Shown piece by piece: positions 46,678-61,452 of a stretch of 64,000 bases of DNA (positions are counted from its first letter, which is position 1; the number at the start of each line of letters is the position of its first letter). The position numbers were made by a program, and so were the translations under genes. The stretch is from Candidatus Latescibacterota bacterium (lineage in GTDB: Bacteria; Latescibacterota; UBA2968; GCA-2709665). The stretch lies in the NCBI GenBank assembly GCA_965219995.1, contig CBDCOX010000002.1, forward strand, positions 2,240,001 to 2,304,000, read 5' to 3'. Under the pieces are notes generated by a model. That model was not told the origin of the DNA. It searched no databases and saw nothing but the letters and a program-made list of their open reading frames with translations.

Positions 46678-46714
46678 GTTGCGATCCTTGTTCTGATGGA
46701 AAAATCTCACCTGG
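46678..46714 (-). CRISPR. Solitary CRISPR-like repeat R1 (ATTGAAAC family)
   Basis: + strand GTTGCGATCCTTGTTCTGATGGAAAAATCTCACCTGG; 31/37 to the window consensus GTTTCAATCCTTGTTCTGATGGAAGATTCTCGCCGGG. Confidence 0.75.
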
Positions 46715-46872
46715 ATTGGCAGGTATCCTGGCCAGCCCTGACCCTTTCGAACCACTTCATTGCGACCAATTGAAATCTCCAATTGGTAAGTTGAGATCCA
46801 TAGCGCAAAGCCCTGCCGAATTGCGACAGGGCTGAGAAATATCCAGATTTAAAACTGACTGTGGGCGACAAG

Positions 46873-47106
46873 CTAAAAGAGATTCATAAATTCGTCCCGT
46901 GGTATATTTGCCTGTCGAAGTATCTTGCTCAAATTGCCAGCAGCCAATTCGGAATGGTCCGGAACAACTGCAATATCGTCCTCGCTATCAGGTAATGAAC
47001 GTCGATAAATCAGGTGCCCGCTATTTTCTCGTACAAAACGAAACCCGAGTTTCGATATCATCTTACCAGACTGTTGTCCAGAAATGTCTCGAGGTAGTTT
47101 AGGCAA
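46873..47106 (-). CDS. hicA: HicA toxin
   Basis: KLGF..VR..GH....VVPDH.EL..G.L..ILRQA. Confidence 0.88.
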   Translation of the reverse strand: MPKLPRDISGQQSGKMISKLGFRFVRENSGHLIYRRSLPDSEDDIAVVPDHSELAAGNLSKILRQANIPRDEFMNLF

Positions 47107-47284
47107 CCTGAAATACCGGATCTTTTTCTTCCAAATACAGAATCGTGGCGCTCTTAAGATTGATCAACGCCTCCGATTGTGTCTTCCCCTGGCTTACCGT
47201 CCCCAATTCGGGACAATAAGCGACAAACCATTTATCCTCCTGGGTTATCTCCGCCGTGAGCCGCCCGCAATTGATGTTTGACAT
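47099..47284 (-). CDS. hicB: HicB antitoxin (short form)
   Basis: FVAYCPEL..SQGKT..EAL.NL..A..LYLE; ATG 47284 after AAGGAG. Confidence 0.88.
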   Translation of the reverse strand: MSNINCGRLTAEITQEDKWFVAYCPELGTVSQGKTQSEALINLKSATILYLEEKDPVFQVA

Positions 47285-47632
47285 AGGTAGCTCCTTTTTT
47301 ATTGTCTGATCCGGGGGATGCGCTCGTTCCAAAGCCAAACTGCTTCCTCATCAATAAATATCCGCGGATATGCTTACGTCCTTGGAAAAGCGCCACGAAT
47401 CAGGTGTGATCGGGGGAGCATTACTCGGTTGTTTTACAATATATAGTATCCATGTCCGATAGACAATATAGAACATGCTTCTACGCAATACCCGTATTCT
47501 TCAAGAATCGGTTTCATCTGTACCCCCGATAACGACTCTTAAACAACGGCGGATAATTCCACGACTCACGCTTCTTTCTCCGCCCGGGCACGCCATATTT
47601 TTCTACGACACCGGCTTCAGCCGCGGCCTACA

Positions 47633-48184
47633 CTATTCATCTTCCCGGATCCTGGCCAGCGCCTCCCGCGCAGCATCCGCCATGAAACCCGGAGAATCCT
47701 CGAAATTCTCGCGAATCCATTCGAGATACCTTACCGCGCGCTTCTCCTGGAACTCACCGAGTTGCCGGATGATCGTCTCCCCGAGACCCGTGCCGATAGG
47801 ATATCGATCCCTGACCATGTGCTCGAGAATGCTCGCAAGAAGGCTCAGCAGGTGTTGGCGAATCTCCTCCGAATCCGGTGAGGGTTTCCAGACGTAGCGC
47901 GGGTTTTCCCGACTTACCAACACGTCGGGTTGACCGGCCTCAACGCGCCGTTCCTGTTCCCATCCGCCGTGGCGCATCACCGGTCCGATGGGGATGGGGT
48001 CGCGATCGGGCCGGCGATGCGGATGGTTTGCGCAATAGGTGTAGAAGGGGTTCTCTATCGCGACGTCCCTGATCTCGCAATAGGGCGGTATGCTTCTGTC
48101 CGCGTGTTCCAACCAGTCACGTTCACCCCGGTTTGTTCTATTGAACCAACAGGTTCCGCAACAGTCGGATCCTCCATTCGGCAT
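47633..48184 (-). CDS. Hypothetical Cys-rich protein with a C-terminal HEAT-like hairpin
   Basis: DCCGTCWFN..YCEIR..YCANH; IRQLGE...RAV..L..AAREALARI. Confidence 0.7.
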   Translation of the reverse strand: MPNGGSDCCGTCWFNRTNRGERDWLEHADRSIPPYCEIRDVAIENPFYTYCANHPHRRPDRDPIPIGPVMRHGGWEQERRVEAGQPDVLVSRENPRYVWKPSPDSEEIRQHLLSLLASILEHMVRDRYPIGTGLGETIIRQLGEFQEKRAVRYLEWIRENFEDSPGFMADAAREALARIREDE

Positions 48185-48252
48185 CGCTCAACCTTCCTTC
48201 CGGTTGTACTTCTGCACTCCTCCCGCGACCGGTCCCGAGGAAACGACGGCGT

Positions 48253-60099: not shown

Positions 60100-60301
60100 C
60101 AGTGAAAACTCCCTTCGAATCGGGTTTATAGTTCCGACAGCGGAGAGCGCTTTGCATTCGTCATCGGTAGGCGGTGACGCACCGTCTGAATTCCATACCG
60201 CGGACTCTGCGGCTGCTGCCACAGGGCAGGCATCATGAGCGCCAATCTCCGTCTGGGCCTTGGCGGAGCCTCTGCGACGCTTGGTCGGCAAGTTCGTTCA
60301 G

Positions 60302-60338
60302 GTTTCAACACTTGCTCTCTTGGAGATGTCACTGCGGA
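60302..60338 (-). CRISPR. Degenerate solitary repeat R6
   Basis: GTTTCAACACTTGCTCTCTTGGAGATGTCACTGCGGA; 24/37 ungapped. Confidence 0.55.
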
Positions 60339-60387
60339 ATGTCGTGCGAATTCAATGCGCCGCGACCACTCGGTCTGTCGGTGCTGC

Positions 60388-61302
60388 TTAAACATCCTCG
60401 AACAGATAGTGCACCCACTTATTTGCGGCATCCGGGATGTCGTGTACGTCAATTACGTATTCCTGCCCTCTCCCCCCGGATTCGACATGGATCCACGGGG
60501 TGTCGCGACGACGCAATCTGACACTGCGACTACAACGTGGGTGGCCGTGGGCTGGCCAGAACCATTCAGGCAGTCTCCAGAACGAGCGTCGACACGATGC
60601 TCCTTTTTCGACTTCCTCCGAATCAGTCAAGACGATACGGCTGTCTTCATTCTGAAAAACGCCACCTCCGGGTACGTCTATTCCCTCTATATTGAGCCTC
60701 GGAGTCGACAGGTAGACGGCGTTGTTCAGAAGCTTGCGAAGACTGTGGGCACGTTCTATAAATGATCGATGGAAATGTGGGTGATCCGATAGCCATGGAT
60801 ACTTGAAGAGAGCGCGGTCGTAGTCGGCATCAGTACGAAGCGATAGGACCTCCTGCACTTGAAGCCAGCCGAAAAGCATATGGACTTTCGGTGCGGATCT
60901 AACTTGACGCCAATGCCCGGTGCCAACTTCCTCGACTTGCCGGAATGTTCCGAAAAAAAGAAAAAGGTCACCACGATCGACACCCTGGCAGTCCAAGTGG
61001 GTCTGTTCTCCATCTACTTGACCGAACGCCGGCCGCCAACCAAGTTGCCGTTGGACCGCATCTGTTCGAATATCCGGATCCAGATGGCACCAACACTCAC
61101 CTCTAACTTTACTAAGACTCTCCACGAGCGGCGAGAGCGAGCTACCGCCCCACGAGACGTCCCGAAATCGTTTCGATGACTTAGGATAACGCGGAGGTGC
61201 CGGAATTGGCAGGGAAAGGATTCTCCCGTCTGGGAAAATGGGGCTTGGGCTCCCTCCAGAGCTTGAGTCGAATCCCTTACGGCTGAGCACGATTCGCCTC
61301 AC
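60388..61302 (-). CDS. Nmad3 (nucleotide-modification-associated domain 3) protein
   Basis: IVLSRKGFDSS.GG.PSPIFPDG..LSLPIP, HLDPD, AFGQ, GDLFLFFG, FGWLQV, GRGQEYV; GTG 61302 after GGAGGGAG. Confidence 0.82.
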   Translation of the reverse strand: MRRIVLSRKGFDSSSGGSPSPIFPDGRILSLPIPAPPRYPKSSKRFRDVSWGGSSLSPLVESLSKVRGECWCHLDPDIRTDAVQRQLGWRPAFGQVDGEQTHLDCQGVDRGDLFLFFGTFRQVEEVGTGHWRQVRSAPKVHMLFGWLQVQEVLSLRTDADYDRALFKYPWLSDHPHFHRSFIERAHSLRKLLNNAVYLSTPRLNIEGIDVPGGGVFQNEDSRIVLTDSEEVEKGASCRRSFWRLPEWFWPAHGHPRCSRSVRLRRRDTPWIHVESGGRGQEYVIDVHDIPDAANKWVHYLFEDV

Positions 61303-61415
61303 GTGTTGACTCCCTCCTGTACCTTTTTGAGGACTCCCGATATCCCCGACCATAGTGATGTGAGACATGGCACCGCTGGTGCATTCGTGTATGGATGGAC
61401 TGCGAGTTGCCTGAG

Positions 61416-61452
61416 AATCCAATCCCTGCTCTGATGCGAGAACCCCAACCGC
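61416..61452 (-). CRISPR. Degenerate solitary repeat R7
   Basis: AATCCAATCCCTGCTCTGATGCGAGAACCCCAACCGC; 23/37 overall, core positions 5-26 18/22. Confidence 0.55.

Follow-up and report, generated by a model that had tools for sequence, protein, structure and literature searches.

The window examined here is the whole of a 64,000-nucleotide (nt) stretch (C2:2240001-2304000) of the genome of a Candidatus Latescibacterota bacterium, which we label G000 and which comprises two contigs, 5.44 Mb in all, at 98.6% completeness. Between about 46.6 and 61.5 kb the window holds an island of defence, toxin–antitoxin and other genes, and the junctions between these genes carry single, co-oriented copies of a 37-nt motif. 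Judged by the arrays that near-identical repeats form in related genomes, this motif is a genuine CRISPR repeat of type I, associated with types I-B and I-C. On balance, we favour the reading that the solitary copies are array-derived junctions at which gene cassettes would be shuffled by recombination between repeats. The related genomes, referred to below as congeners, are metagenome-assembled genomes (MAGs) of Ca. Latescibacterota and are labelled G001 and so on, G015 belonging to a sister genus.

Copies were scored by their ungapped matches to a 37-nt consensus on both strands of the 5.43 Mb scanned, and an nhmmer profile built from 43 distinct copies from G000 and related genomes was run on the whole genome. 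As repeats, all copies in the window are on the minus strand, the consensus matching the plus strand. Four of them agree with the consensus at 31 to 34 of 37 positions, exactly as an earlier first-pass annotation of this DNA had reported. R1 (46678..46714; 31/37, E = 2.8e-7 genome-wide) lies 158 nt past the HicA stop and is the last copy before the island edge. R2 (51916..51952; 34/37, E = 5e-9) has the GTG start of a peptidase S51 open reading frame (ORF) 18 nt downstream, and R3 (56002..56038; 32/37, E = 1e-8) is found 60 nt past the stop of an EEP-family gene. The best match, R4 (58022..58058; 34/37, E = 1.2e-9), leads a small gene of 58 amino acids (aa).

The remaining copies are decayed. 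One of them, at 57792..57828 (25/37; nhmmer match at 57798-57826, E = 0.007), had been missed before; it begins 11 nt past the stop of the 58-aa gene and aligns with the repeat at 14303 in G010. The copy at 60302..60338 (24/37; no nhmmer match at E <= 100) is placed between the genes for an Nmad3 protein and a GmrSD-type nuclease, with the stop of the former 49 nt before it and the start of the latter 10 nt after it, and it has a similarly decayed counterpart in the same place in G013. Upstream of Nmad3, the copy at 61416..61452 (23/37; nhmmer match at 61420-61446, 11.7 bits, E = 1.2) is the seventh-best profile match genome-wide and has the strand and location expected of it. These last two had been listed as degenerate copies together with a third, at 56984..57020, upstream of the EEP gene, which does not stand on its own score: 17/37 (21 at +1) is the level of chance, and the profile gives no match at E <= 100. 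What speaks for it is its position, 24 nt before the EEP start, since in G008 and G015 the start of the orthologous gene is preceded, at 27 nt, by a clear repeat; we regard it as a possible, strongly decayed repeat.

At least 24 matches are reached at six positions on the plus strand genome-wide, all six of them in the island, and at one position on the minus strand. At least 22 matches occur at 43 plus-strand positions, seven of which fall within 46.6-61.5 kb, where about 0.12 would be expected by length. Because the plus-strand matches concentrate in the island in this way, seven of the window copies, all but 56984, are real beyond chance. Copies with no more than 10 mismatches number only four in 5.43 Mb, on one strand (plus) and within 11.4 kb, and no other nhmmer match in the genome falls below E = 0.25. 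The motif is therefore confined to the island. A dispersed repeat of the repetitive extragenic palindromic (REP) or miniature inverted-repeat transposable element (MITE) type, scattered in both orientations, was considered and is ruled out: the copies are few and occupy one 11.4-kb stretch and one strand.

The co-orientation and intergenic placement first described for seven copies hold for all eight. Their distances from the upstream stops are 11, 49, 60, 69, 158 and 277 nt, and successive copies are spaced by 5238, 4086, 982, 808, 230, 2280 and 1114 nt. A further suggestion had been that the repeats encode regulators resembling CRISPR RNA (crRNA). No mini-array geometry that would fit this is seen in the window: the closest copies are 230 nt apart and enclose the 58-aa ORF.

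Type I repeats and their arrays in related genomes

In several congeners, repeats nearly identical to the solitary motif form regular arrays with a spacing of 71-90 nt: 65 repeats in G010, 76 in G012, 34 in G006, 26+7+4 in G003 and 63 in G015. Among the array repeats, species differ in the 5′ 13 nt, and the 3′ 24 nt (ending ...AAGGATTGAAAC in RNA sense) are identical. Next to the arrays are, in G010, genes of type I-B, Cas6b among them, and, in G012 and G008, genes of type I-C, among them Cas5d. The proposal that the motif, read on the minus strand, is a CRISPR repeat is thus borne out by the relatives, in which the cognate array and cas genes that it called for have been found. In Rfam, R3 is matched over its full length, on the minus strand, by the family CRISPR-DR7 (34.3 bits, just below the gathering threshold of 37; E = 0.0014), the other seven of the eight copies giving no match at E <= 1. 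The folding energies of the solitary repeats and the array forms (-2.2 to -4.1 kcal/mol) are not better than those of shuffled sequences (z = +0.06 to +1.6). CAGTGNC-like heptamers directly follow some of the solitary repeats and the array end.

G000 itself has no array of the solitary motif. Its only true array, on the minus strand from 62659 to 64000 and on to genome position 2304572, consists of 27 repeats of a different, 36-nt unit, matched on the minus strand by Rfam CRISPR-DR33; two of its repeat-spacer units are exactly duplicated (63095-63237 = 63238-63380). Behind the array stands a complete type I-MYXAN operon (cas genes at L019 839-8779), with cas6/cmx6, cas3, cas8a1/cmx1, cas7, cas5, cas4-cas1 and cas2, of which Cas2, Cas4/Cas1, Cas8a1 and Cas6/Cmx6 were assigned by NCBIfam, and Cas3 and Cas7 by search. 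The I-MYXAN repeat folds into a 9-bp hairpin (-9.3 kcal/mol). Cas6b, Cas5d and Cas6_C were looked for in G000, and there was no match to PF17262, PF09704, PF01881 or the Cas6b protein of G010. Neither a cognate array nor a cognate Cas6 is thus found in this genome, the Cas6/Cmx6 of the I-MYXAN operon being the only one present. Because the repeat that Cmx6 serves forms a hairpin and the solitary repeat is unstructured, recognition of the solitary repeats by Cmx6 seems unlikely. For the same reason, and given the absence of Cas6b and Cas5d, the earlier model in which the repeats are Cas6 cut sites that process or silence a defence polycistron would be unlikely to apply in G000.

The simplest history would be that the cas genes and array of G000 were replaced by the I-MYXAN system, while the downstream region kept the repeats of the former one. 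The old repeats would then be left without a cognate partner because the cas module and its array had been exchanged.

The phenomenon is wider than a single genome and is a property of the genus. A 25-nt core of the repeat occurs in 12 of 14 congeners and, outside the genus, in 1 of 7 further genomes of the family; no genome has it in more than one orientation. All 358 profile matches, found in 16 loci, are co-oriented within their locus. We define as solitary the matches that lie outside any run of three or more at array spacing, which number 77 of the 358. They are found close to a CRISPR locus, where most of them are trailer-side of either the array or the cas genes, and are 158 nt to several kb apart; in some congeners, remnants of a repeat are seen 24-36 nt upstream of a solitary one. 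The locus is chromosomal and lies between conserved genes in several congeners. In G000 and G010, the island is bounded by the gene for a 911-aa Ig-domain protein and by a set of 105-, 287- and 249-aa genes. The 911-aa protein (42491-45226, minus strand), with ASH/HYDIN/Cep192-type Ig-like domains (DUF1573-like), is conserved in congeners and marks the island edge in G000, G001 and G010. Third-position guanine–cytosine content is lower in the island than in its flanks. The cas modules at this hot spot differ among genomes, being of type I-B, I-C or I-MYXAN.

Gene cassettes bordered by repeats

The 58-aa ‘WHPDGTP’ gene (57840..58016, minus strand) occupies the position of a spacer between R4 and the decayed repeat at 57792. 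The order is R4, 5 nt, ATG, 58 codons, TAA, 11 nt, decayed repeat. Related genomes have the gene too, frequently as tandem copies (three successive ones in G010, at least four in G011), with starts 2-5 nt past a repeat and stops 0-27 nt before the next one. Because five residues are invariant in an alignment of 23 family sequences and dN/dS is 0.115 for the G000 copy against that of G010 (proportions of differing nonsynonymous and synonymous sites, pN 0.087 and pS 0.493), the gene is, by these measures, protein-coding.

Of the 77 solitary repeats, 24 are followed within 0-8 nt by an ATG with which an ORF of 50 aa or more begins (random positions: mean 3.8, maximum 10, in 200 trials). Nineteen of these 24 ORFs belong to the 58-aa family, the rest including the G013 Nmad3 homologue and a 403-aa gene. 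The stop of a long open frame lies 0-15 nt upstream of 25 of the 77 (6.7 on average in the control, 15 at most). In the loci, every one of the 30 tblastn matches to the 58-aa family is on the transcribed strand of the array, a repeat is detectable upstream of 20 of 27 WH motifs, and an AAGGA sequence in the repeat precedes the ATG by 11-12 nt. In G012, the 76-repeat array closes with a ‘spacer’ that is a frameshifted copy of the 58-aa gene; the gene is intact in the near-identical contig L044. This 2.7-kb contig, with repeat, 58-aa gene and repeat, bears the label ‘Tectimicrobiota’ and was considered as a case of cross-phylum transfer, which we reject: it is 96.6% identical to G012 over its full length and has the last spacer of G012 in common (39/39). 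It is thus not an independent lineage, and its phylum name, probably a binning label, is doubtful. In G012 (14780-23041; L015/L016), a unit of 58-aa gene, repeat and DUF4432 is found on both sides of the array, DUF4432 being truncated on the leader side; the array is therefore inside a duplicated segment.

Inserts that fit closely between repeats, a repeat end forming each border, resemble spacers. It might be supposed that Cas1-Cas2, with Cas4, integrated gene-length DNA at the leader repeat, that the repeat was duplicated in the process, and that the units then drifted to the trailer end. Their place at the old end of the array, down to the gene copy that closes the array of G012, would agree with this. 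However, the Cas1-Cas2 ruler for spacer length is established, nearly all inserts have one orientation and the same family recurs among them, which duplication and selection would fit better than repeated capture. The larger cassettes have loose borders of 18-277 nt, and no precedent was found in the literature searched. We consider gene-length spacers to be extremely improbable.

No match to the 58-aa protein was obtained in Pfam, PHROGs or PADLOC that would indicate its function, and the ESM Atlas gave nothing usable. An AlphaFold model (predicted local distance difference test score, 74) has a short hairpin and two helices, for which the best Foldseek match in the PDB has E = 3.8. The family is rare, with 11 clusters of 5.77 billion and, in a set of 1.84 billion, 65 representatives at E <= 0.001; some 20 of these 65 are long proteins that match only the WHxDGTP stretch, repeatedly, and were set aside as unrelated repeats. 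A metagenome scan returned four family loci, of which only L051, a locus resembling those of G003 and G007, has the repeat. In a Binatia MAG (L045 5968-6192, plus strand), a 74-aa homologue lies between phage head-morphogenesis (phrog_241) and scaffold (phrog_206) genes, on the opposite strand and in a moron-like position; outside the lineage, the family has no repeat. As a separate observation, a 397-aa ORF of G001 (L020) encodes a NucS_C-like PD-(D/E)XK protein with a C-terminal WHxDGTP domain and reads into a decayed repeat, and its homologue in G012 (L015 11687-12765) is split into ORFs of 131 and 229 aa.

The moron-like homologue gives some colour to the idea that the cassettes are anti-CRISPR modules of mobile elements, each a Racr-like repeat mimic with an anti-CRISPR gene, that entered by recombination between the repeat of the element and the host array. 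Viral solitary repeat units (SRUs) are often located beside acr genes and have been proposed to allow integration into arrays, according to the account in PMC10651486, and the hot spot has swapped its cas modules several times (I-B, I-C, I-MYXAN). On the other hand, the 24-nt core of the repeat is present in 0 viral contigs, and the units are chromosomal and syntenic in most congeners. The lack of a PHROG, Pfam or fold match for the 58-aa protein and of integrase or phage genes among the Pfam-scanned ORFs of the G000 island also argues against such an entry, which we hold to be very unlikely. None of the 298 array spacers matches a cassette or the 58-aa gene.

Segments of the G000 island have homologues elsewhere, in other orders. 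Flanks were compared for every pair of solitary repeats from two genomes in which at least one 150-nt flank is homologous (n = 185). Both flanks are homologous in 9 pairs, only the upstream one in 78 and only the downstream one in 98, so that homology stops at the repeat in 176 of the 185. In G008, G012 and G013, for instance, DUF4432, the next 81 nt and an identical repeat are common to all, and three unrelated sequences follow right after. The S51 gene of G010 and G001 is followed by a repeat and by nothing in common beyond it, and EEP has differing neighbours before it: in G000 there is a 248-aa gene, in G008 one of 183 aa, and in G015 the array itself. Of all blastn alignment ends, 50 of 859 fall within 5 nt of a repeat edge (7.9 expected); for the ends of intergenic high-scoring segment pairs (HSPs), the count is 26 of 408, with 9.8 +/- 3.1 expected and a maximum of 20 in 300 draws. 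With homology so regularly one-sided and HSP ends enriched at repeat edges, the first-pass proposal that cassettes are shuffled at the repeats gains comparative support. In addition, a stretch of about 77 nt after R2 (51839..51915, minus strand) resembles an array trailer. By blastn, 51839-51946 matches G010 18985-19091 (85%), G010 14231-14331 and G001 18673-18777, and because the 77 nt also follow the terminal array repeat of G010, R2 looks like a former array end.

The cassettes of G000 were further characterised by scanning 29 island ORFs with Pfam. The GmrSD-type nuclease (58336..60291, minus strand; GmrSD_N, E = 7e-30; PADLOC candidate system HEC-05, E = 6.7e-222) is 86% identical to a segment of G013. 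The Nmad3 gene (60388..61302, minus strand; E = 1.5e-58) probably starts with GTG at 61302, as indicated by the alignment with G013, in which a decayed repeat ends 4 nt before the ATG. The two genes are adjacent in both G000 and G013 (58336-61302 in the window) and may form one modification-dependent defence unit. The EEP-family cassette (56099..56959, minus strand) matches Exo_endo_phos with E = 5.9e-5, just under the cut-off. Next to it, the gene labelled ‘UDG’ in the first-pass annotation (57090..57836, minus strand; start uncertain) has no match in Pfam, NCBIfam or PADLOC; its homologue in G010 is 200 aa long and is followed by a repeat. The peptidase S51 cassette (51034..51897, minus strand; E = 1.2e-41) and the HicA toxin with its partner (46873..47338, minus strand; HicA_toxin, E = 2e-9) are joined by a MazE/MazF pair in a plus-strand block between R2 and R3 (54019..54737, plus strand; PemK_toxin, E = 1e-31; MazE_antitoxin, E = 2.8e-5).

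Thus, of the labels given to the genes at the junctions, Nmad3, GmrSD and EEP are upheld by Pfam, and ‘UDG’, ‘wHTH’ and ‘lipoprotein’ have no family match. Likewise, defence and toxin–antitoxin genes are present as had been said, but the island is mixed and also has a peptidase S51, a PQQ propeller and a periplasmic binding protein. No integrase or phage gene, and no recombinase, turned up among the 29 Pfam-scanned ORFs; no search aimed at an integron integrase was made. Promoter-like sites near the repeats number 7, against 6.0 +/- 2.6 in shuffles, and the scan of the surroundings of the repeats for promoters and terminators gave nothing above shuffles.

Elsewhere in the window, tandem intergenic heptamers (CGTCTCA-like) and an 85-nt repeat family are found at 23619-23791, 39644-39871 and 41937-42421. 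Repeats with a 66/78-nt period at 765-1251 and 4500-11200 are typical of a leucine-rich-repeat-like gene, and paralogous segments about 1162 nt apart in the same region suggest tandem paralogous genes.

Origin and possible roles of the solitary repeats

Selection on the repeats themselves was gauged from 19 repeat-led 58-aa cassettes, aligned in 157 inter-genome pairs. In the pairs with pS of 0.4-0.6 (n = 20; mean pS 0.52, pN 0.26), the leading repeat differs at 0.19 of its positions overall, at 0.29 in the 5′ 13 nt and at 0.14 in the 3′ 24 nt. R4 and the repeat at 14533 in G010 differ at 3 of 37 positions, and the synonymous sites of the adjacent gene at 0.49. At least these repeats, the ones leading 58-aa genes, thus appear to be kept far better than neutral sequence. 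In contrast, the G000 copies at 56984, 60302 and 57792 have diverged about as much as, or more than, the adjacent coding DNA. Since G000 has no cognate enzyme, its copies are mostly decaying relics.

Conservation above the neutral level, greatest in the 24 nt common to all arrays, is in line with repeats that act as functional RNA sites. The cassettes would be transcribed with or after the pre-crRNA, and Cas6b or Cas5d would cut or bind the repeat and thereby release, stabilise or silence the mRNA. In a variant of this idea, the cut could separate AAGGA from the ATG, and the arrangement could be a guard that switches the 58-aa protein on when the Cas proteins fail. The genes led directly by repeats are all co-oriented with the array, the interval from repeat to ATG is tight, and Cas6b is present in G010, as this would have it. 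Nevertheless, G000 keeps an intact 58-aa gene and its repeat with neither Cas6b nor Cas5d, the Cas6/Cmx6 that it does have serves a repeat of quite different structure, and a terminator-like hairpin intervenes between EEP and R3. The position of cleavage and the role in ribosome binding are, moreover, putative. As an account of the whole layout, RNA sites seem improbable to us.

Another possibility is that the layout is plain wreckage, an old array broken by insertion sequences (ISs) or other insertions and by loss of spacers, with the repeats as neutral leftovers. The array of G003 is indeed split by inserts carrying transposase-like ORFs, which we take to be ISs from a likeness of their N-terminal sequences to IS21/IS5-type transposases, and Pfam identifies a DDE transposase in the locus of G013. 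Four of the eight G000 copies are badly decayed, in a genome that lacks the cognate Cas6b or Cas5d, and standalone repeat-like sequences are common in CRISPR-cas loci according to PMC10120712. But random insertion should leave remnants of spacers, and what is found instead are 58-aa ORFs placed within a few nucleotides of the repeats on either side. Neither the excess of ATG-led ORFs abutting solitary repeats, several times the expected number, nor the preservation of the repeats leading 58-aa genes far beyond that of synonymous sites, nor the one-sided homology that is the rule at repeats would be expected of neutral debris. Wreckage therefore seems to us an unlikely explanation for the whole.

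The history that we prefer combines decay with recombination. Type I repeats, now intact to badly decayed, would have been left downstream of a CRISPR-Cas hot spot, at its trailer side, and arrays that lose their spacers would collapse to single repeats. Across the genus, such repeats border cassettes (the 58-aa gene, EEP, S51, DUF4432, the 248-aa gene) that have differing neighbours from genome to genome. As 37-bp segments of portable homology, they could recombine within a genome and with incoming related DNA, and such recombination would delete, insert, duplicate and reorder the DNA between them. In genomes with Cas6b or Cas5d, a repeat that leads a gene would probably also be an RNA signal, serving as processing site and 5′ leader. 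Cas6 enzymes cut 8 nt from the 3′ end of the repeat; if AAGGA is a ribosome-binding-like motif, a cut at that place would sever it from the ATG.

A number of points count against this reliance on recombination at repeats. The 5′ junction of the S51 cassette falls 66-77 nt inside, not at the repeat, and a contig from run X5 links 46452 to 53720, a joint that does not coincide with a repeat. (The same run has almost no cover over about 58002-61547, the region of GmrSD and Nmad3, with cover on both sides and no joining contig; this was not used as evidence.) The 185 repeat pairs are not independent, because many of them are paralogous 58-aa cassettes from related genomes. An HSP running through a conserved repeat is apt to stop at the far edge of that repeat, so the enrichment of ends at repeat edges is inflated. 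The low divergence of the leading repeats is partly a matter of ascertainment, since repeats are found by similarity and 7 of the 27 WH genes have no detectable one, and an appearance of constraint could also arise through gene conversion among the repeats. Some of the layout can be explained without recombination between repeats, because putative IS insertion accounts for the splitting of the G003 array. Repeat–repeat recombination is proposed as the most likely mechanism.

It is tempting to go a step further and to propose that the array doubles as a platform of gene cassettes, integron-like, exchanged through repeats and gated by Cas6b or Cas5d, with the 58-aa protein as a guard or an embedded anti-CRISPR. 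Its cargo of repeat-led protein genes in spacer position, among them the phage-related 58-aa gene, Nmad3 and the GmrSD/HEC-05 nuclease, would be transcribed the same way as the pre-crRNA, and Cas6b or Cas5d would excise or gate it at the repeat; a guard would be set free once the Cas proteins had been disabled. We put this forward as a tentative and rather doubtful extension.

Comparison with known systems

CRISPR arrays are reportedly subject to evolution by recombination, as Kupczok et al. are said to have described in 2015, and the present loci resemble what array recombination and IS or Tn7-like insertion produce, in that arrays are rearranged through their repeats and interrupted by mobile DNA. 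Tn7-like elements target arrays (Chacon Machado & Peters 2025, PMC11837452); as portrayed there, their insertions fall at a fixed position within spacers, and they bring Tns genes with them. The inserts of the present loci abut repeat ends, and there are no Tns genes among the ORFs scanned.

Integron arrays have co-oriented, packed and promoter-poor ORFs, a recurring short site, a variable order and a cargo of toxin–antitoxin and defence genes, all of which the island calls to mind. The site, however, is an unstructured CRISPR repeat here and not an attC hairpin. An attC-type site was considered and is ruled out, as the repeats fold no better than shuffles.

Phage solitary repeat units act as RNA anti-CRISPRs and are often found beside acr genes (Camara-Wilpert et al. 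2023, PMC10651486). The likeness to these Racr elements, so far as that source describes them, lies in a single repeat beside small genes and in the relative of the small gene in a prophage. In the Latescibacterota, by contrast, the repeats are chromosomal, serial, co-oriented with the host array and syntenic across the genus, and their core is in none of the viral contigs.

The closest relatives are the standalone repeats and mini-arrays of type I loci, which are well documented as regulators (PMC10120712). Like ours, these are copies outside the array, in or beside a type I locus, often degraded and conserved among related loci. In the part of that work concerned with them, they are mostly two repeats about one spacer length apart that yield crRNA-like regulators. 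Those of the present loci are single repeats 230 nt to 5.2 kb apart that frame protein genes, with an ORF in spacer position, and in G000 they have no cognate cas module. CreTA, a Cascade-repressed toxin module treated in the same source, offers a further parallel, since degenerate repeats in a type I-B locus are there coupled to a small gene that could report the integrity of Cas; the CreA component is a repeat-spacer-repeat RNA that represses a promoter, whereas in our loci a protein gene has a single repeat as its 5′ leader.

Because mini-arrays, Racr, integrons and REP elements each have at least one defining feature that was looked for and is absent here, the layout is set apart from all four and is placed here with the standalone CRISPR repeats. 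The literature searched contained no account of serial single repeats framing protein genes or of an ORF in spacer position, although supplementary lists may hold such loci. If the repeats are portable recombination sites, they would help to explain how defence islands beside CRISPR loci are assembled and reshuffled and how cas modules are swapped. If it is true that Cas6b or Cas5d cuts or binds them, they would exemplify a naturally occurring control of ordinary mRNAs by CRISPR processing enzymes. Standalone repeats have been known in two guises, as regulators in mini-arrays and as phage decoys in Racr; in these genomes they take a third, that of a recurring border of protein-coding cassettes.

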